From Squalus acanthias (Eukaryota): a DNA stretch of 64,000 nt. The translations under genes were made by a program, and so were the position numbers. The stretch is taken from assembly GCA_030390025.1 (NCBI GenBank), contig CM059432.1, forward strand, positions 24,368,001 to 24,432,000, given 5' to 3'. Below are positions 9,783 through 60,586 of this stretch, piece after piece. Below the pieces are notes generated by a model. The model did no database searches, had not been told where the DNA came from, and saw nothing but the letters and a program-made list of their open reading frames with translations. Within the stretch, counting starts at the first letter, position 1. Each line of letters opens with the position of its first letter.

Positions 9783-9991
9783 GTTTCCATGATGCGGAGA
9801 TGCCGGTGTTGGACTGGGGTGGACAAAAGTGAGAAGTCGCACAACACCAGGTTATAGTCCAACAGTTTTATTTGAAATCACAAGCTTTCGGAGCTGCTGC
9901 CCCTTCACCTGACGAAGGGGCAGTAGCTCCGAAAGCTTGTGATTTCAAATAAAACTGTTGGACTATAACCTGGTGTTGTGCGACTTCTCAC
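9783..9991. mobile_element. Penelope-like inverted pLTR insertion (near-perfect hairpin, arms ~9828-9906 and ~9914-9993)
   Basis: About 80-bp inverted arms, with the extra terminal segment GATGCGGAGATGCCGGTGTTGGACTGGGGTGGAC on one arm. Flanking TTCAATAA duplication (9775-9782, 9992-9999). Confidence 0.8.
9905..9942 (+). ncRNA. Minimal type I hammerhead ribozyme motif
   Basis: TCAC-CTGACGA-A-GGGGC(AGTA)GCTCC-GAAAGCTT-GTGA. Confidence 0.75.
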
Positions 9992-10743
9992 TTCAATAAA
10001 ATTTGGTCAAGTATGACCTTCCCTTTTGAAATCCGTCCTGACTGCTCTTTATTATATTTTCAGTTTCTAGTTGCTTTTCTATTACATCTTTGAGTAAGGG
10101 TTCCATTATCTTCCCTACCCCTGATGTTAAGCTAATTGGTCCATATGTAATACCCTTCTTCGATCTCCCTTTTTAAATATGGGAATCACATTAGCTTTCC
10201 GGCAGTCCTCTGCCACTATTCGCTTTTCTAATCAATTGTTATATATATGTAATAGTGCCTCTGCTATGTCTGCCCTAACTTATTTTAATATGCACAGTGC
10301 AATACATCAGGACATGGGGTTTTATCCTCTCTAAGTTTGATTAGTTATCAATTATCTCCCCCCTTTCTATCTTAAATGTCTTTGGGGGAGAAATTCGGTA
10401 TCGCCCCGTTTGGGGCGCAATTATCGGCCGGGCGCAAAGTTTAGCGCCTGGCACTAATTATCGTCTCCGACTGCAAACTTGGCTTTTATCGCCCCGGAGG
10501 TGATTGGAGCGCTAAATCAGGCGCTACACACCTATCTTAAGGCGCAAAGGCCGAGGAGTGAGGCGCTAACTCAGAGTGCGGGCGAAGCGCAGGTGATGTC
10601 AGTTAGCAATGGAACACAGACACACTGGCGCCGGCCAGTTCTTAAAGGGGAGGGTCGATCTTGCTCTCCATCCACACCCTGCTCATTGCAGCCTTGAATC
10701 TCGTCGTGGACAGACCTGTGCCTAAATTTTCCAGCCAAGGACT

Positions 10744-12598
10744 ATGGAGAGGGTGAGAGAACGAGCTCAGCGCTTCAGCGAGCGGGCCTTGGAGGTTCTG
10801 GTTGGCACGGTGGAGCGCAGAAGAGTTAAACTGTACCCTGAGAGTGGCAGGAGGCCTTTGCCGCACAACTACAGAAGAGTGTGGAGGGAGGTGGCTCAGC
10901 ACGTCTCCTCCAGGAGCATGGTGCCCAGGACCCATACGCAATGTCGCAAAAAGTTCAACGACCTCACTCGGGTCGTCAGGGTAAGTGGCTGTTTTTCAAT
11001 ACCTCTCCATCCCTCCATCTCAACCTCACTCTATGGCCAGAGGGTCTTAAAACCCCAATGCCCAACACCCATCCAAGACTTAGGGCCATCTCATAAAACA
11101 CACACGCTCATTCCACACTTTGCATACAGTAAGGGCTATTCAACTATGGCAGGCACATGAGGCAAGACCATGGCTGCATACAGTAAGGGCTATTCAATTA
11201 TGGGAGACACATCAGGCAAGACCATGGCTGCATACAGTAAGGGCTATTCAACTATGGGAGGCAAATCAGGCAAGACCATGGCTGTATATTTACTCAGACA
11301 CCGTCCTTTTTCTTGCAGGCCAAGCTATCTCATAACAGGAGACAGCAGCAATGGACGGGTGGAGGGCCGCTTCAGCTGCAACCCCGCAGTGAATTTGAGG
11401 CGCGCGTCCACAGGATCGGTCCCATCGCCCCTGGAGAGGTCGACCCCATTTGGGACAGCAATGGTAAGGTCATTAGCTATCTCTCCTCTCTCATTCCACT
11501 TGTCCCTCACAACACCAGCCTTTTACACTTTCAACCCAACTTAATAAATCGCTCCACTCCTTCCTCCCTTACTGCCCACCTGTCCTCACGCTAAAGCCAC
11601 TCTTGTACCTCCCTGCTTTCAGATGGTGATTCACCAGCTGAGGAGACGGGCCCTCAAGCTGCCAGTGGGAGCGAAGCCGCAGGCAAGGAGGCAGAGGAAG
11701 AGGAAGCCTCAGCGCCACCCTCTCCCAAGGAAGCCCATGCCCACACTGGGAACACGCCTTCCCTGGAGGGGAGCAGGGGGGAAGGGTCTGATGAGGGTGA
11801 AGCTCCAGGACCCAGCGGGCTGCAGCAACGCGATGGGGGTAGGGAAGCTCGGGGGCCTTCTCCCCGGAGGGAGAATATGCCAGCGAGTCCTACTGCACTG
11901 GACGCAGAGGAGGAGCGGCTCATCGCTGAAATGAACACCCAGGCGGTGGACATGCACACTCAGCTCATGGGTGCAGTGGGAAGGGTGCCCGAATGCATTG
12001 ATGGACTGGCAAGGAGTGTGGAGCACTTCGCTGCAGCACAGGCGGATGCCACGCAAATGCTTAGTGCTGCAATTCAGTCACTGGCTGCCGTGATCCAATC
12101 TCAGACTGCTCTCATGCAGCTTTAGGTTGAGGCCACGCGAGCACTGACTGCTGCTATCATCGATAGTTCGTACACATTTCCCCGGGGCTCTCACGGCGCC
12201 GCAGCAGGCCAGCAATCTGTGCTCCAGCAGATTGCTCCGGATGCTGAGGTGCTGCCCCATGGGAGTGCCAGTGTGTCGGTCGAGCAGGGAGTTGCTGTCC
12301 TCTCTCAAGATGACAGCATTCCTGCTGCCACCACTGTCACTTCTGCACTGCACTTGCCACTGCCTGTACCCAGACTGCTGCCGCCCATGCAGAGTTGGTG
12401 CAGTCTGCAGCTGGGCCCTCCAGGTCCAGAGCTGGTCGAGGCCGTCCTTCAAGGGCATCTGCAGTCTCAGGTTCTGACAATCAGCAGCCTTCCACCAGCC
12501 TTGCTGCAGCCACTGGGGCCCCATTACGGAGGAGCAGTAGGGTGGGAAGGGGGCAAGTGGGCAAGGGAAGGAGATCACCCTCGAAGGGCAAAATGTAG
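10744..12598 (+). pseudogene. Harbinger Myb/SANT-like gene; exons 10744-10980, 11319-11463, 11623-~12598
   Basis: RFSERALEVLV...VW.EVA..VS...RTHTQCRKKFNDL|AKLSHNRRQQQWTGGG with canonical GT-AG sites in phase. Premature TAG at 12123-12125 where the sister copy has CAG. Basic NLS-like tail LRRSSRVGRG. Confidence 0.85.
11121..11288. repeat. 54-bp minisatellite x3 in intron 1
   Basis: TGCATACAGTAAGGGCTATTCAA... at 11121, 11175, 11229; revcomp of the unit at 1141-1415. Confidence 0.9.
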
Positions 12599-17913: not shown

Positions 17914-19655
17914 GGCCGTAATTTTGCCAGCCGTGGTGAGTCCAGTGTGGCCGGAGTAGGAAGCGACATCAAACCCTGCTCCCATCTTCATCCCGCCTCC
18001 TCCAAGTGATTTTGCCCTGATTGGGCTTGTTAAGCCCGCCCTGCGAGTTTCCCGGCCAATTAAAAAGAAGCAGGCCTAATGACATCATCTGATGACGCGT
18101 CCTTAAAGGGGCCATGTCCACATTCATTTTGACAGTTGTGCTGTCAGTGCTCTACAGCATTGAGCTGCAGCAAATACTGACAAGCACTCCACAGAAGTGC
18201 AGGGCTGCACCGAGACTCTCCCACGCAGGGAGGTTCTCTTCCCTTCCAATGGGTGGAAGAGACCTCCCCAGGACACCAACACAGCCTGGTTACACATTGC
18301 ACAGGAGGGCACAAGCAGGGATGTTGTCAGGAGGACCTGGCTGCAGTGGTGCAAACCTTTCAATGATCTCAGTAGATCACGAAACGTTACTGCAAAGCCA
18401 CACTCAACCTCATCCTCCTGTGCCACTCATCACATCCCCATCACTCTGCCTTCCCTACCCTACTCCTGCACATCCTTACTCACACCAACTTACCTTACAC
18501 CTCTATCCATCCCTCTCTATCTACATTATCACTTCCCCATCTCACTAGCCACCCCTTATACTCACCCTCATCCTTGTCCAATCATTCAAACTAACAACAC
18601 ACAAGGGTTCGCACTTGTGTACTTTAGCCAATGTTCATGTAAAGTTTCTGTTAATATGTTGTCAAGCATTGAAATCCTTATTTTCACCCCTTGCCTTCTT
18701 GGACAGATTTGTGTGCACCTTTGAAAGTGTCTTAGTGAGTTGCCGTGAATGGTGAGACATAACGTCCCCACCCACCCCACCACCAACCAATGGAGGTGAG
18801 TGTGAAACGAATGACTTGGACATTGTAGGAATGCTTTATGGTGCTGGTGTGGGGTGGTACCAACTTGGTGCATCATGTGGCAGCCAGGGTGTACAGTGTT
18901 AAGTGAAGCAAATCTGGACATGGTGAGGCCATTCCTGGCGTCCCGGGCAGCAATGTGCATGGGTGATGATGGCCTGTGCCCAGTGCAGCATCAGTTGATT
19001 GCGGAGAAGGTTGGTGTTGATGTTGGTGCTGCTGGTGTGCCTGGTGATGCTGGTGTTGGGGCTGATCGTGGTGGGATTCTGAGGACCAAGGTGAGATTTT
19101 TTCAAGGGCACCGATGCTGATGGAATAGATGGCAGGTGACGTTGAGATGACAGAAGCGATGTGTCAATGGTGAGAAAGGTTGTTCCACTGAGGTGACACT
19201 GGATAGAGAGTTTGCTCCAAACACTTGCCAGCTGCATAAAGCTCAATCTGTCTTCTGAATGCAGTAAGCAACAGCTTCTAACCTTGGAAAGTGAAGACCT
19301 ATGAAATGGGAGCTTTCATAGAACATTTGCAGCTGTCAGGTTAGTAAATCATTCCATGCTGACACAAAACCCGACCTACTTACCTGACGTGATCCCCGCG
19401 CTCCGGGAAACTTGTGGAAAAGCTGGTAAAATGGTAAGTACATGGGAAAATGGTGCTTAACTACCTTTTATTAAGCTTTTAAGTATCTAAATTGGCTGAC
19501 CTGCTACTTGGTGTCGGGTCTGTTTAGGGATGACACTTGGGAAACTGACAAGGAGGTGGGTTTACAACGGGGTACCGACCCGCCGTCAATCTTTTTGATT
19601 TTGACAGCAGACCTGCCTCCAAACCTGCATTCTGAGCGCCGGCAAAATTCCGGCC
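17914..19655. mobile_element. Internally deleted Harbinger element (GGCCG-TIR subfamily)
   Basis: TIRs GGCCGTAATTTTGCC / GGCAAAATTCCGGCC, TSD TAT. Myb remnant EVLFPSNGWKRPPQDTNTAWLHIAQE..RTWLQWCKPFNDL (18197-18370). Transposase C-terminal remnant ARDARNGLTMSRFA on minus. Confidence 0.85.
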
Positions 19656-47114: not shown

Positions 47115-48398
47115 AACATCTCTCAAAAGATCCTACTATGTCCAGTACTGTTCTTGTTAGTGTTTCCTTTCCAAAGCCATTCGTTCTCAAGGCATCTGAA
47201 GGTAGTTGGCAGTCATTTTTTCCACTTAATAGGACTTTACAATTAGGCATCATTTATGCCATACAAAATTAATTAGAAATGTCTGTAGCTGTTTATGAAT
47301 ATGCAGTTATGCAAAAATAAATAGAGAGTTGAGTCTATGTTCTAAACCTTTGTGGTTTGCTATTTGCATATGTTTTAGATGACTGCGCTGAAAGCCAGCT
47401 GTCTTGATCAGCTATGGCAGAATGCATATGCAATGCTCTAATGAGAATTGCAAATTTATTAAAAACCATATTTTTGCAATTTGCTTGCATAAGTGGTTGC
47501 AAAACCAAATGATTCCATAGTATTAAATGGGTAAGAATATGTTTCTGTGTAGTGACATCTTCATTGAAGAGTCTTTCATGACGTTGCTTATGAACTTTTA
47601 TGGATGGCATCTGTTGTTTTGCACTTGAATGGGAACCCGGTCCTCACACTGTCAACTTGTCAATCAAGGCCATTGTTGGGATTGACGTTCTTGCCATTAG
47701 ATGTTCTATCTGCTGCAGCCTTTTACCAAATGATGCACAATGGATATTCCTACTGTGAGTCTGCTGCATGTCATTCAGTTAGATAAATACGATGTCAATA
47801 CTTGCGGTGCATCTCACTCCAAAATGTTTTTTATTTTCCTATTTTTCATCCTTTACTGAAAGTGCTAATTCTTGTTTGGACTTGGACCCTGAATGCTGGA
47901 AGCCCTCAGACAACCTGTCCAAATGGGCATTCTTCACATGTGAGCCTAGACAGTGTGTGTCGGCAGGCTATCTGATCAGTCGAATATGATTTTATTATCA
48001 CATGCCTCCGCACATCCATTTTCTAAGTGATCACTGAATATCATTTAGCAGCCGAATCCTAGCTGATGTTTCACCTTCCTAGCTAGGGGCTCGAGGTCCA
48101 ATTGTAACACCCCCAACAACCCCAGGTCAGATCAGCTAACTCAGTACATGCTGTGGGTTGATCCTGAAACCATAGCTCATCATAATGAGCTGTGGATTTA
48201 TTTACTGAATCATTAGGAGAGTTTTCTGATCTAACGGCCGCGATTTTACCATCGGCGGCAGGTTGGAGTCGGGTTGGCTGGTCGGTGGGTTCTGGTCTGG
48301 CTGCCGTTTCATCCACTCTGAATTAACTATTTTCCCTTAACTGGGCGTGTCGCCCTGCCCAGTCAGTGGGTTCGGGTCTGCTGCTCGCCTCTGCTGAC

Positions 48399-48627
48399 TG
48401 ACATGAATCTTGTCATTCATGTGGAAATGACTTATGAAATAATACTAGGCGGCCTGCTGGTGGCGCTGTCCAGGGAGAGTATAAATACTCGGGCATGGGC
48501 CCAGCTTGCTCAGGACATTCTTTAACAGGAACTAGTGAAGGACACAACTAAATCTCCATGTTGAAAAACAGTTGATTAATGCTTTGTTTAACGCTTAGAC
48601 CAAGTGCCTAGTAGTTTTCTTACGTCA
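48399..48627 (+). mobile_element. Solo LTR (229 bp)
   Basis: TGAC...GTCA termini, 5-bp TSD CTGAC, TATAAATA box, near-identical to 58803-59031. Confidence 0.85.
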
Positions 48628-48721
48628 CTGACGTCTTTCATTCAGTTGCATTTAAGGGGCCCATGCAGCCTTATGGTTTTTCATTCATTTTCTGATGCTT
48701 CTCAGTGTGGCAGATAGAGAG

Positions 48722-50650
48722 ATGACTGGTTTAAGAGCAAAGGCCTCTCCAAGATTTGATGATGACTCCCTCCATGCTCTTGTGGAGGGAGTGAGAGGGC
48801 GCAAAGGGGTTCTGTTCCCCTCAAATGGATGGAGGAAGCCTCCTCAGCAGACTAATGCAGCCTGGCTGTAAATTGCTGAGGAGGTTAGCGCCAGCTCTTT
48901 GTACTCACACACCTGCCGCAAAAGGTTCAATGATCTGCTACGCTCAGCACAAGTGAGTATAACATCACACTTACCTTCAATCTGCTCCCCATCTCCTCTC
49001 ATCACCAGCACTCTGCATTGTCAACCTACTCCTGTACATCCCAACTTACCCTTACATCCCTTGTACCCTTAACCATCCCTCTCTCTCTATGTACAGAATC
49101 ACTCCACCATTCTACTATGCACCCCTCACACTCGCTATCACTGTTATGCAATGGTAATAACTAACAACGCACAGGGAGGGCCCTTGGTATTGGCACCTCA
49201 CTCCATCTTTGTCTCCCTCTAAGCATCTATGCTATGGATACTCTACACTCACTCCAACATTCTTGCTCAAACTCCACTTGTGTCCCTCATTGCAGGAAAA
49301 GAGAGCCCACAATAAGAGGGAGAGGGAGAGGGGGAGGACAGGAGGTGGGCCACCTTCCATGGGGCACTTGACCACCACTGAGGAGGCTGTTATTGACATT
49401 ATCGGAGGTGCTGAGGAGCTGGAAGTGGCCAACGAAGAGACAGGCGCAGTAGAGCAAGCTGGTGAGAGAATAGATTTACAACCCTCTCATTTAGATTGCA
49501 TGAGTGACTGATATGGCTTCTGATGTTCATACAGATTGAGTTCTGATCATTGCACAATGTGATGTGCCTGCTATGTTAATATCACATGTCTAACTCATGC
49601 CTTTACTCCCCCACAGGACCATCAAGAGCCCCCCTCCCCACTGTCCAGGAAGAAGAGTCTGAAGACACCTCAGAGGAAGCTGCAACCTCTGAGGGTGCAG
49701 CATCAGCAGAATTGAGCGCACCCAGCACCAGCGCAGAGCCGGGCACCTCGGTGGCTCATTCGCGAGATAGATTAGTGTTGTCACTTGGTGTATCACAGCT
49801 CACAAGTGAGCATCAGCAGATGGTGGAGACAGGGACAGCAGTGGAGAGTTCTCATTGGAGGGTGTGGGGTGCTCCTAGGTCTGCTCAGCTGCATGTGGAC
49901 CCTGTGCCTCTGGGGCCATCCAGAAAGAGAGCAGTGCTGGAACTTCAGGAACAAGTCTAGGAGTCTCTGACAGGGTTTGCAACCATGGTAACTGTGAGTC
50001 TGCAGAGAATGGAGGAGTCCATCTCAAACATGAGCAATGCGGTGGTGCACTCAATGGCAAATGTAGGTGCCGCCATGGAAAGGATGGCAACCTCCATGGA
50101 GGACATAAATCGCCAGATGCAAATGAACATGGTGACTCTTCTAAATAGATGGTCTACTATGAAGGATGGAGGATAGATGGGCATCTATTGAGGAGAGGAA
50201 CCAGAGGTACATGGACGTTCCCGTTATAGAATCATAGAGTCATATGTTATGAGGACAGTTAGTACAGAGATGGGTCCTCATGGCCCCACTGATGTGCAGC
50301 AAGGTGCTCACCAGCCATTTGCTAGCAGTGAAGTGCAGCTGACCCATGAGAGGGATGTTAGTGGTCAACAGCAAAAAAGTGCGGGCTCCTCTCTAAGTGC
50401 TCACACTCCCATGCCACTGCGAAGCCCTCAGTCAGAGCCCCAGATTCCTCACCCAACTGAGATGGCCGTCTCAGCCCCTGCACAGCTGCAGGAGGAGCAG
50501 ACTGTTGCCGAGCCCTCACAGGCTCCAAACCCAGAGGACACCCGCCAAAGGCGTCGAAGCAGGCGCAGCATGGAAGTGAGCAAGGTGCCTCAACATCTGC
50601 TGAAGCCACAGGGGAAGCACCACGTAGTAGCACGTGTAAGAGAAAGTTAA
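48722..50650 (+). pseudogene. Harbinger Myb/SANT-like gene; exons 48722-48952, ~49296-49461, ~49617-50650
   Basis: SPRFDDDSLHALVEGV..VLFPSNG..AAWL*IAEEVS..TCRKRFNDL|gtgagt; ttgcag|EKRAHNKRERE..RTGGG; acidic and coiled-coil exon 3; several stops and shifts. Confidence 0.8.
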
Positions 50651-50947
50651 CACACAAATAGTCACAAGGGTAGTCACTTGGGTGTTTTGATCTCATACAA
50701 AGTGAAGATTATCATCGTTAATTCAACTGTAATAAAGAAATGCAATGGCAAAGATTCAAAGAGTTGGCCGATGTGTGCTCAGAAATGGAAGTGTCACAGT
50801 GAGGTGTCAGGGCGCCTTTCATCTGTAATTATGGTGCTGAGAGTGATAGGAACCCACAGTTTATTGTTCAGATGCTGTATGGTGTGTTAAGAAGGTCGGC
50901 CAGACACTCATTTCCATGTGCTAGCCACATGTGTTTGCTGCGTAAAC

Positions 50948-52150
50948 TTACGCAAATCTGACGTGGATTGGTGTATTCCTTGTCTCACGGCCAGCAATGT
51001 GCTCACGCACTGGTGGAACTGGCACATCCGCCTCCGCAAGGTCTTCCTCATCTGCATCCTCCTCTGAGGAGGAGGAGGAGGCTGTGCATTGAGCCACTTG
51101 TTCCTCAGGCAGCGATAAGCTATGCTGCTGTGTGATGTTCCACGATGATTCTGGAGACCCTGGTTGATGAGTGCTGTAGGGATCCACCAGATCTGTCGAG
51201 GCATCTGAATCGTATTTTGAGCAAGCCGATGGTTTGCTCTATGATGATTCTTGTGGAAATGTGGCTCACATTGTAGCACTCCTCAGCTTCGTTTGATGGG
51301 CTCCTCATTGGTGTCACTAGCCACGTCTTCAGGGGATAGCCTTTGTCTCCAAGTAGCCATCCATTGGGTTGGCGGATTGAACAGCTGAGGCACAGTAGAT
51401 TGCCGCAGGATGAATGAGTCATGGCAACTGCCAGGGTACTTTGCGCAAACATGCATAATGTTCTTCCTTTGGTTACACACCAGCTGCACGTTAAGGGAGT
51501 GGAAGCCCTTGCGGTTGACAAATACAGCTGGGTTGTGATGGGGTGCCCTAATGGCCACATGTGTGCAGTCTACGATGCCCTGCACCCTTGGGAAGCCTGC
51601 CATATTTTCAAAGCCAACCGCACGCGTGGTTACACTTGCTTCATCCGTGGAGAAGTGGATGTAATTGTGCGACCTTGCAAAGAGGGCATCGGTAACCTGT
51701 GTGATGCAAGTGTGTGTGGCCGACTGGGAGATGCCGCTTATATCTGCTGCTGATTCCCTGGAAGGACCCTAAAGCAAAGAAGTTGAGTCCGGTGGAAACT
51801 TTGACAGCCACTGATAAGGAGTGTCCACCAGCTCCTCTGGGCTCCAGGTGTTGGTGCAGCATTGCGCAGATGTCAGCGACTACCTCTCGTAGAAGTCTCA
51901 GCCTCTTTTGGCACTGCTGCTCACTCATGTTGAGGAAGCTCATCCTCTGCCTGTAAACCCTGTGTTGGGGGTATCTCCTGCGGCGCGGTGCAGTCCTGCG
52001 CTGACACCCACTGCCCTGTGTATCATCAGGTGGCCGAGGAGAAGCTTGGCGCTCCTGTTGTTGCTGCTGCTGTTGTGCCTGGTTCTGCTGTTGCCGCGGC
52101 TGCTCTTCCTCCGATTCTGAGAACTAGGATGAGATTGTGTAGATGGTTCC
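50948..52150 (-). pseudogene. Harbinger DDE transposase, frameshifted
   Basis: [66 protein letters not shown], acidic tail. Confidence 0.9.
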
Positions 52151-52325
52151 CATTCCGCTGGTATATATCTCAGTTGAGGAATAGATGTTATAAGCGGTCA
52201 GTCAATGTGAGGAGAAGGCTTTCCAAGGAGGTCACAGTGCATATGGATCTCAGCTTAAACACTTACATGCTCGAAAGTGAGAAGTCGCACAACACCAGGT
52301 TATAGTCCATCTGTTTTATTTGAAA

Positions 52326-52363
52326 TCACAAGCTTTCGGAGCGGCTGCTTCTTCGTCAGGTGA
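52326..52363 (-). ncRNA. Minimal type I hammerhead ribozyme motif
   Basis: Revcomp TCAC-CTGACGA-A-GAAGC(AGCC)GCTCC-GAAAGCTT-GTGA; one stem II mismatch. Confidence 0.65.
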
Positions 52364-52459
52364 AGTGAAGAAATACAAATGGGCACAGCATATATAGACA
52401 GAGAACAATGCCTGTGCAGAGAACAAGATCTTTCTGACTGCCCTTTATCACACCTCACT

Positions 52460-52497
52460 TCACCTGATGAAGGAGTAGCCGCTCCGAAAGCTTGTGA
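52460..52497 (+). ncRNA. Minimal type I hammerhead ribozyme motif
   Basis: TCAC-CTGATGA-A-GGAGT(AGCC)GCTCC-GAAAGCTT-GTGA. Confidence 0.75.
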
Positions 52498-53027
52498 TTT
52501 CAAATAAAACAGTTGGACTATAACCTGGTGTTGTGCGACTTCTCACTTTTGTCCACCCCAGTCCAACACCGGCATCTCCACATCACTTACATGCTCAATA
52601 GACCTGCAAAATTTGTTCCAAAACTTCAAAACACAAAGTTCTGGCATCAGCCTTGTTACAGATCCACTTTTATGCTGCAGGTGCAGCTGTCAAGAGTTCA
52701 GGTAGTTGCTGAACCCGGCACAATCGGCTGGAGTGTTTGTCACATGACGTGCAACACGCTGAAAATGTAGTAAAATGGGAAGAGCCTGTAAAAATGGGAT
52801 TATGTAGGCAGTTAACAAGCTGCCTTAAGTGCCTCTCCCGCCGCTTGGTGTCGGGTCTGATTAGGACTCGCAGACCCGACACTTTGCAAAGTTGCGTGGA
52901 GGTGGGATGGTGGCAGGCTCGCAACCCGCCGTCAATCATTTAGATTTTCACTCTTGACCTGCCTCCAAACCCGCCCTCTGAGCAAAATCGCGGCCAACAT
53001 GTTTGGCACATTTAGTAGAAAATCATT

Positions 53028-53194
53028 GGGGGTGAAATTGGTCTTCGTTAGTAGCGTGAAACATGCTCATAGCAAGTTGACAGGCTCTTTTACATGGTGA
53101 ACCATTTCCTTTACCATTGAAGTCAATGAAAAGAAAATCGAGTGTGATGTTATGAGCATGTTTCTTGATACTGGCGATGACCAATTTCACCCCT
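53028..53194. mobile_element. Tiny Harbinger-type MITE (~167 bp)
   Basis: 15-bp TIR GGGGTGAAATTGGTC/GACCAATTTCACCCC, flanked by ATT. Confidence 0.8.
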
Positions 53195-58802: not shown

Positions 58803-59031
58803 TGACATGAATCTTGTCATTCATGTGGAAATGACTTATGAAATAATACTGGGCGGCCTGCTGGTGGCGCTGTCCAGGGAGAGTATAAATACTCGGGCAT
58901 GGGCCCAGCTTGCTCAGGACATTCCTTAACAGGAACTAGTGAAGGACACAACTAGATCTCCATGTTGAAAAACAGTTGATTAAAGCTTTGCTTAACGCTT
59001 AGACCAAGTGCCTAGTAGTTTTCTTACGTCA
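58803..59031 (+). mobile_element. Solo LTR (229 bp)
   Basis: TGAC...GTCA, 5-bp TSD TTGTG, TATAAATA, ATTAAA poly(A)-like signal. Confidence 0.85.
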
Positions 59032-60586
59032 TTGTGTATGCACAACGAGCTCCCGGCCCGCATGTGGCTTGCCGGTGGGATCTCGCTGTCAACGGGAGGG
59101 TGGGAAATAGAGCTATCTAAAATAACTGCTCAAGGATGCAGACCACATCCATTCTCAGGAACAGATGAGGGATGGGCTTTTTATGGCTCATGGGGGGAGT
59201 CACTCCCCATTACCTCACAGGGGACCTGAACACAGGTAGCACCACTGCCCTGTCAGACAGATGTGAAAATGTTTAATAGCCTCATGAGGTCTGTCAAAAA
59301 AAGTCGAGCCAGTGTTATACTCTACCAAGTGTGTGAGCAAATTAAGCAAATCACAAAGAGTTTCCTCTCACCATGTTAAACCATGACCGTGGCTGTATAC
59401 TAAAGGGAAACAACACATCCACACCAGCAAGCCAGCCACACTTCTCAAATAAGAATGGTTGTGCCAGACACCCACTGCAGCAGCAGACATAGTACTGTAG
59501 AAGCAGTTGTAGCACATCTTTTGACACAGCACAAGGAGGTAGAGAGCTGCCTCACTTGGAAAAGGCTCCTACTGACACCAAGGAGCTGGCCACTTCACTT
59601 AGAGTACCTAGAAGGAGCACAAGGTTAAGCGCTAAATCATATAAAACATTCAGGGGCAAAAAAAACCGCAGCCTTCTGGCACAATCCCGCTGTAATGGCT
59701 GGGTTCTCGATTTATTGGAGGGTGATCTTTGACTTCCGCCCGTTTTTGCTAGCATGAGGCTCGAGCCATTTTGACTCCCAGACCTTGTTTAAATGGCACC
59801 AACGCGTGGTAGGTACCAGGTGGACGCCCTACTGCAGCTCACCCCTTTGTGGGAAGGTGTCAAATCAGCTGGCTCCCAGACTGAGCGGTCAGCAGGTCAG
59901 GTCTAAGGGAGCGGAGGTGATCCAGGGGTGGCCTCGAATGGGTCAGCAGCAGCTTTTGCATGTCCAGAAGGAGCAATCCTGCTCCTCCCAGCACCACCAA
60001 AAAATAAATTAACGCTTGCCAAGGCTGCTCATCACCTGGCATAACTAAGCAGAGTGCGTATGGAGCACCGGCTACCCATTTGTACCTGAAAATTGTAATC
60101 AGGATCCTACAACTGGCAATTTGCATATTCAAACAGCCTCCGGCATGATTCAGGTCAAAGGGCTGCTCATCTAGTTACAAGACCACCTGAAACTTTCATC
60201 GAGCAGGTCTTTAGTGTTAATGGAGGTAAAAAACGGGTGGCCGGCAATTGAAAATTGTTGCCACGGAGTCACTGGTCAATGATCATCAGTGGGTGGATCT
60301 TGGCATTTACACTGGGATCAAAGGCCTGTGGGTTTTTGGCTCTTCACTGTTCGCAAAGCGAAGCACCAGCGCAAAAGAACACTTGCAAACTTCATTTTTA
60401 CGGTATCAAATTTGGTTGCACTTTATTTCAACTGTGTGCAGAGAGTTTTCTTACGATTATGCAAAGTCAGGTTTTAACAAATTATAGATTGGCTTCCCTG
60501 GTAGTTGTGTTGCTGCAGCGTCCAATGTTGTTGACGGTGTCCTGGCCACTACATTGTTCACAGGTGAAGAGCATTTTTAATACATT

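Follow-up and report, generated by a model that had tools for sequence, protein, structure and literature searches.

Two hammerhead-bearing, 5′-truncated element ends lie head to head within a decayed Harbinger-like transposon of Squalus acanthias, most likely through a single Penelope-like insertion

The window analyzed here, a 64,000-nucleotide stretch of Squalus acanthias DNA (assembly GCA_030390025.1, contig CM059432.1, positions 24,368,001 to 24,432,000), is eukaryotic repeat DNA that contains LINE-type reverse transcriptase (RT) fragments, Harbinger-type transposases, and Myb/SANT domains. At 48236–52995 it harbors a PIF/Harbinger-like DNA transposon with DDE_Tnp_4 matches, which is delimited by 12-bp terminal inverted repeats (48236–48247 and 52984–52995) and carries AAC, three identical bases, on both flanks. 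This host element is apparently complete but decayed. A Myb/SANT-like gene, read by eye, lies on its plus strand and the transposase on its minus strand. The transposase ORF (50950–52153, left end approximate) is broken; its putative ATG, at 52153, is followed nine codons later by a premature stop (52126–52124), and frameshifts are present near 51750 and 51370. Other repeats were noted in the surroundings. A 232-bp repeat is found in two copies that are 97% identical (48399–48630 and 58803–59034), one of them within the host transposon, and is likely a SINE, while a 165-bp element at 53029–53193, whose 46-nt inverted ends are 85% complementary and begin like Harbinger terminal repeats, is likely a MITE. 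Tandem repeats of ~54 nt lie at 1138–1415 inside a Myb/SANT-type Harbinger ORF and are fewer in the paralogue at 11121–11290.

The host transposon contains a 311-bp stretch, 52273–52583, bounded by identical 13-bp repeats on the plus strand (52260–52272 and 52584–52596), the left of which lies 107 nt from the putative transposase ATG. From composition, an exact 13-mer at one fixed offset has P = 1.7e-8. Comparison with a paralogous Harbinger copy at 18977–19655 shows that the latter is shorter at this site, with 79 nt between the anchors compared with 395 nt at the insert locus, and the 316-nt difference is compatible with the insert plus one repeat (324 nt). On the left, its alignment with the flank reaches the duplication (score 187, shuffle maximum 36); on the right, the alignment begins at 52667 (score 180, shuffle maximum 37), and the right-flank sequence closest to the insert does not align when taken alone. 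At ~70% identity to the host, this insert-free copy is a paralogue and not an allele, and no loose end marking an empty site at 52584 is present among the public-contig loose ends listed. At 19380–19425 the paralogue shows a weak local resemblance to the insert (score 47, shuffle maximum 37), which does not include the hammerhead core and was set aside as chance. The 311-bp stretch is an insertion, and the 13-bp target-site duplication assigned to it by the initial annotation is upheld by the exact repeats and the insert-free paralogue. In public contigs the 3′ end of the arm family takes in the first 2 nt of the right repeat, so that the duplication can be counted either as 13 bp, overlapping the element by 2 nt, or as 11 bp.

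The insert is organized around two inverted arms, 52274–52368 on the minus strand and 52455–52549 on the plus strand, that are complementary at 91 of 95 positions. Public contigs were compared over 52369–53020, which covers the middle, the right arm, the tail, and the right flank and leaves out the left flank and left arm, in 4 runs of 20, representing three organisms; 11742, 1590, 6046, and 18706 contigs matched in the four runs. Among the loose ends listed, heterogeneous continuations appear behind 52585 (129, 23, 46, and 481 contigs, agreement 0.36–0.43) and further heterogeneous ends behind 52550 (42 contigs, run X1) or 52545 (6 contigs, run X18), with 53 ends at 52582 in run X6. As the continuations diverge both behind 52585 and behind 52550/52545, the arm family has two alternative 3′ ends, separated by ~35 nt. 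The right arm, which begins at an initiator-like motif, extends into a tail (52550–52585, plus strand; 34 nt within the insert plus the 2-nt overlap with the duplication) that is confined to this arm. The left arm is tail-less, its family 3′ end corresponding to the equivalent of 52550, and finishes in a single base, 52273 on the minus strand, that was substituted or untemplated. The junction of each arm with the duplication falls on one or other 3′ end of the family.

The 86-nt middle (52369–52454) has the appearance of a spacer, but the contigs that cover it run leftward into an arm, which identifies it as the upstream pLTR sequence of the left, minus-strand arm. Loose ends before 52372 match the family arm in 11 contigs of run X1 (agreement 0.97) and in 8 of run X18 (0.90). 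The layout is one of a tail-less minus arm of 181 nt and a tail-bearing plus arm of about 130 nt, placed head to head, and since each holds sequence absent from the other, 86 nt upstream in one and the 34-nt tail in the other, neither is a plain copy of its partner. Both arms also carry a rare A, at 52511 and at its mirror position 52312, where the contigs read T (94–99.6% of depth over the four runs, 99.4% in X1), and so they come from a common source or were homogenized later. We attach practically no weight to the notion that the inversion is an assembly or chimeric-read artefact. Although no public contig in the four runs spans all of 52369–53020, the arms differ from each other at 4/95 sites, the duplication is exact, a second such pair is present in the window, and opposite-strand joints were found in two public runs (1 contig each).

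Around the tail, within 52538–52587, a pyrimidine tract ends in AG (52561) and is followed by an ATG at the family 3′ end, an ATG that is also seen at 9788–9790 and in loose ends. The tract and ATG could be the splice acceptor and ORF start of the parent element; were that so, the parent's hammerhead would lie in an intron or 5′ UTR. The 31-residue translation of the frame towards the tail-end ATG gave one match among 1.84 billion proteins, P0001, which was rejected as spurious, being a repeat protein whose score adds up from 25 weak stretches, each of ≤4.7 bits.

Additional copies of the arm family are found in the window. The second head-to-head pair, at 9788–9993 in a LINE fragment, has an 8-bp exact flanking repeat and the same tail asymmetry as the 52273–52583 insert, with a tail-bearing arm on the minus strand that is cut inside the core and a tail-less arm on the plus strand. 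Its arms are joined inside the ribozyme via a 4–5-nt overlap and have a G.U stem II variant in common. A single tail-less copy at 2166–2258 on the minus strand has an 11–12-bp duplication and, at its 5′ junction, 25 nt of filler in which a 9-mer from the flank recurs; this copy, within 2166–2294, shows a two-sided change in helix I and an A at position 7. Over the three inserts, the duplication measures 13 (or 11), 8, and 11–12 bp. This spread bears on whether the insert is a MITE-like fold-back DNA element, made of the ends of a Penelope-like element (PLE) and moved as a unit, a reading that would explain long inverted arms inside a direct repeat and to which the hairpin model MIR821 (RF00885), at 97.8 bits, might seem to lend weight. 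However, that score is a generic hairpin match far below the gathering score of 249, the ends of the insert are asymmetric, and the three inserts differ in length and junction as well as in duplication size. A MITE would show symmetric terminal inverted repeats, with length and duplication size constant between copies; the inserts show neither, and we regard such an origin as extremely improbable.

Each arm of the insert contains a minimal type I hammerhead motif. The plus-strand motif, 52460–52497, consists of helix I (52460–52463/52494–52497), the core (52464–52470), an extra A (52471), stem II (52472–52476/52481–52485), GAAA (52486–52489), and G15.2, C16.2, U16.1, and U17 (52490–52493; numbering as in PMC4209133), with the predicted cut after 52493. 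The minus-strand motif, 52326–52363, has its predicted cut between 52330 and 52329 and an A.C mismatch in stem II at 52350, which is private to this copy because stem II is fully paired in the family contigs. The initial annotation placed both motifs correctly, but its description of them as intact does not extend to the minus copy. To a strict descriptor (4-bp helix I, core, ≥4/5 stem II pairs, palindromic 15.2–16.2, and UH) the window returned four matches, all of one family, compared with none in 200 first-order Markov windows, and the assignment to the minimal type I architecture is sound on this measure. The loose core pattern alone is not significant (four matches versus 1.7 expected; 15/100 shuffles as high). 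All four whole copies retain the CUGANGA and GAAA-N-N′-UH core with palindromic 15.2–16.2; N7 varies among them (U, C, C, A) and the remaining core bases are invariant. Helix I (4–5 bp) and helix II with G10.1–C11.1 are paired in 35 of 36 cells, the minus copy at 52350 being the sole exception, and the one two-sided change in helix I among the four copies amounts to covariation that is not significant (136/500 shuffles as high).

The C3 positions of the opposite-strand motifs are 105 bp apart, and no second motif on the same strand, as a dimeric fold would use, occurs within 40 kb. Two scans with the Rfam hammerhead families gave no match at E up to 10, which we infer is to be expected given that the motif lacks helix III. 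The exact pattern was absent from the metagenome, viral, and prokaryotic collections scanned (0 loci), and no paper containing a 16-nt arm string was found. The AGCT stem III and CUU triplet had initially been singled out as unusual, and this does not hold against published hammerheads. Cervera and de la Pena (2014) define the minimal hammerhead with a palindromic 15.2–16.2 as the rule and already describe dual motifs on opposite strands about 100–700 bp apart (PMC4209133). In the 56 rows counted in Fig. S3 of that paper, exact G-C-U-U stands in 2 (Philodina roseola and Chrysemys picta), G15.2–C16.2 in 5, including S. mansoni family 1 (the family tested in vitro), the CUU triplet in 3, and U17 in 24 (PMC4209133). 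The AGCU/CUU core variant is, by virtue of those G-C-U-U rows, already in print.

The insert combines several traits of PLEs, namely a hammerhead motif near the pLTR 3′ end, a tail at one end together with two 3′ ends, a head-to-head inverted and 5′-truncated copy, and a short duplication of variable length. An inverted 5′-truncated copy with a 30–40-bp tail, often at one end only, is described as typical of PLEs (PMC8557442), and inverted pLTRs have been reported that have a 31-bp tail and 8–10-bp duplications and in which a TATA box precedes an initiator-like TCACT by 20 bp (PMC3846280). For D. virilis Penelope, a 34–37-bp repeat and a TATA-less internal promoter are described (PMC2377424). 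The insert is an ordinary case of this published insertion pattern, and the Penelope-like origin proposed at the outset is borne out by its anatomy. None of 149 window frames of ≥95 aa (309 frames of ≥70 aa) matched the GIY-YIG family in Pfam; as the parent RT/GIY-YIG ORF was not found within the window, it is on anatomy that Penelope-like membership rests. A retrozyme would comprise at least two hammerhead-bearing units arranged head to tail, and the insert does not. A literature search for Penelope hammerhead ribozymes of sharks turned up a single paper, in which “shark” concerns only a name. We conclude, with a probability of roughly 80%, that the insert represents two 5′-truncated 3′ ends of one high-copy family, set head to head in a 13-bp duplication, and that it is most likely a dead remnant left by a single insertion event of a Penelope-like retroelement with an endonuclease. 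The enzyme of this element likely used both strands of a staggered cut to prime reverse transcription.

Such a reaction has a biochemical counterpart in PAc, the Poseidon of Anolis carolinensis (Frangieh et al. 2024). Purified PAc cuts and extends both strands, which was ascribed to a predicted dimer, and begins reverse transcription at two internal sites, by which the tail is defined; the RNA that PAc uses is uncleaved, and the PAc hammerhead cuts only with the protein (PMC11167929). Following this precedent, a 13-nt-wide staggered cut would leave two 3′ ends, of which the bottom strand would prime at the tail-end site, aided by 2-nt pairing, and the top strand at the tail-less site. The two cDNAs would then be joined at their 5′ breakpoints, and the hammerhead motifs would be passengers of the family's pLTR. 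Alternatively, in the same element, the inversion may go back to self-priming or fold-back synthesis, as modeled by Arkhipova et al. (2013), or to gene conversion that later took place between the arms. A published argument holds that palindromes at inverted junctions serve for self-priming (PMC3846280), and either fold-back synthesis or conversion could also give the rare base common to both arms; the overlap through which the 9788–9993 pair is joined fits as well. It is harder to reconcile these routes with the 86 nt upstream in one arm and the 34-nt tail in the other, each absent from its partner, or with the abutment of each arm on the duplication at one of two family 3′ ends, and the extension of both strands by purified PAc (PMC11167929) speaks for priming on two strands. 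We judge self-priming or conversion to be unlikely.

Folding predictions bear on what the motifs could do at this locus. The whole insert folds at −192.5 kcal/mol (z −26.8), and in read-through RNA the ensemble cost of stems I and II is 66.6 kcal/mol (plus) or 60.0 kcal/mol (minus), with pair probabilities <1e-13. Both motifs are thus predicted to be buried by the 95-bp hairpin and inactive in read-through RNA, in agreement with the masking by inverted arms that had been envisaged. The companion idea, that a transcript crossing the site in either direction, close to the Harbinger ORF, would include a ribozyme, survives insofar as each RNA has one sense motif. The regulatory hint attached to it is weak, since the antisense arm is transcribed before the sense motif in either direction, the two motifs are never in one RNA, and the ORF has a stop and two frameshifts. 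With the motifs on opposite strands, a cis dimer is impossible. For the right motif, the dimeric active fold has a nearest-neighbor energy of −17.5 versus −20.0 for two monomers, multiloop energies being rough. CUU belongs to the weakest class of NUH triplets (PMC8879150), and single minimal hammerheads showed no cleavage in vitro, with low cleavage for dimers (PMC4209133). The hammerheads of the parent element would likely cut weakly, as dimers or with the element's protein.

The arm also contains putative promoter motifs. On the minus strand, an initiator-like motif (52362–52368, A(+1) at 52366) lies 3 nt before helix I and a TATA-like box (52390–52396) lies at −30 from the initiator A. A TATA at −30 occurs in 29/20000 spacer shuffles, and the window has three TATA-plus-initiator pairs. 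Relative to the initiator A, the arms start at −2 (52455), +2 (9903, ambiguous by the ~5-nt overlap), +1 (2258), at least −88 (left arm), and +12 (9907), so that three of five arms in the window begin within 2 nt of the initiator (post hoc, n=5). In run X9, the loose-end consensus before 52459 starts with a TATA box at a similar distance (44 contigs, agreement 0.57, weak). The clustering of arm starts at the initiator, together with the TATA at −30, suggests that short copies may be run-offs at the RNA 5′ end, with the ribozyme at +4 to +41. Extending this, short genomic copies might be complete run-offs from the internal RT start sites to the transcript 5′ end and not random truncations, the head-to-head insert would be two primings, one on a 5′-terminal ribozyme copy and one on a read-through copy, and cleavage at +37 would decap the element mRNA, acting as a protein-assisted off switch and not as a unit-length cutter. 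We offer this proposal, drawn from sequence patterns, tentatively and consider it possible but doubtful. No published statement of such a transcription-start reading for short PLE copies was found in a search that covered subscription journals thinly.

The same promoter motifs underlie the best version of a different reading, in which the insert controls the Harbinger transposase transcript as a ribozyme or promoter switch. The minus-strand TATA at −30 and initiator point towards the transposase ORF, and RNA begun at 52366 would lack the antisense arm, escape the hairpin, and read into the transposase 213 nt downstream. Such an RNA would indeed be the exception to masking, though with the mismatched stem II copy. 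Yet helix I pairing in it is predicted at only about 0.03, the motif lacks a partner for a cis dimer, CUU ranks in the weakest NUH class (PMC8879150), single minimal hammerheads go uncleaved in vitro (PMC4209133), and the ORF that would be controlled is broken. A switch at this locus is, in our estimation, very unlikely.

The locus itself matters little, since the insert and its host transposon are both dead and the anatomy and core variant have both been published. Its value is that of a clean genomic record of PLE integration, in which both RT start sites and both target strands are captured in 311 bp. It also bears on the role of PLE hammerheads through a testable idea; should the ribozyme lie right at the transcript's 5′ end, short copies would mark where transcription begins.

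Comparison of the insert with known systems places it closest to insertions of PLEs. With the reported insertions of EN+ Penelope/Poseidon, Neptune, and Nematis (PMC3846280, PMC8557442, PMC2377424) it shares the head-to-head inversion, a 34–35-nt one-arm tail, an 11–13-bp duplication, a hammerhead near the 3′ end, and TATA plus initiator in the pLTR (as in Pen2a_Av); it differs in that only two pLTR ends are left, with no ORF. Non-LTR retrozymes, as described in bioRxiv 10.64898/2026.07.22.740005, are likewise non-autonomous and pLTR-derived and have a type I hammerhead, but they form same-strand tandem arrays, whereas the insert is an inverted pair with one motif per strand. The likeness to metazoan PLE minimal hammerheads (PMC4209133) extends to the core, the extra base between 9 and 10.1, G10.1–C11.1, the 4-bp helix I, the palindromic 15.2–16.2, the U-rich 5′ and AU-rich 3′ flanks, and the opposite-strand pair, and the lamprey Poseidon row of that paper has the same helix I letters as the insert motif. 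In contrast, the exact family of the insert is absent from the 56 rows of Fig. S3, and its minus copy has the stem II mismatch. With respect to PAc (PMC11167929), the insert differs in that no frame opens from an ATG at stem II, its sole candidate start probably lying at the tail end. The insert and PAc are nonetheless alike in having two 3′ ends split by the tail, in the apparent use of both target strands, and in keeping the whole ribozyme, as an uncleaved template would give. Moreover, the distance from the predicted cut to the tail end, 92 nt at the insert, compares with 85–92 nt obtained by subtraction from the PAc numbers (PMC11167929).
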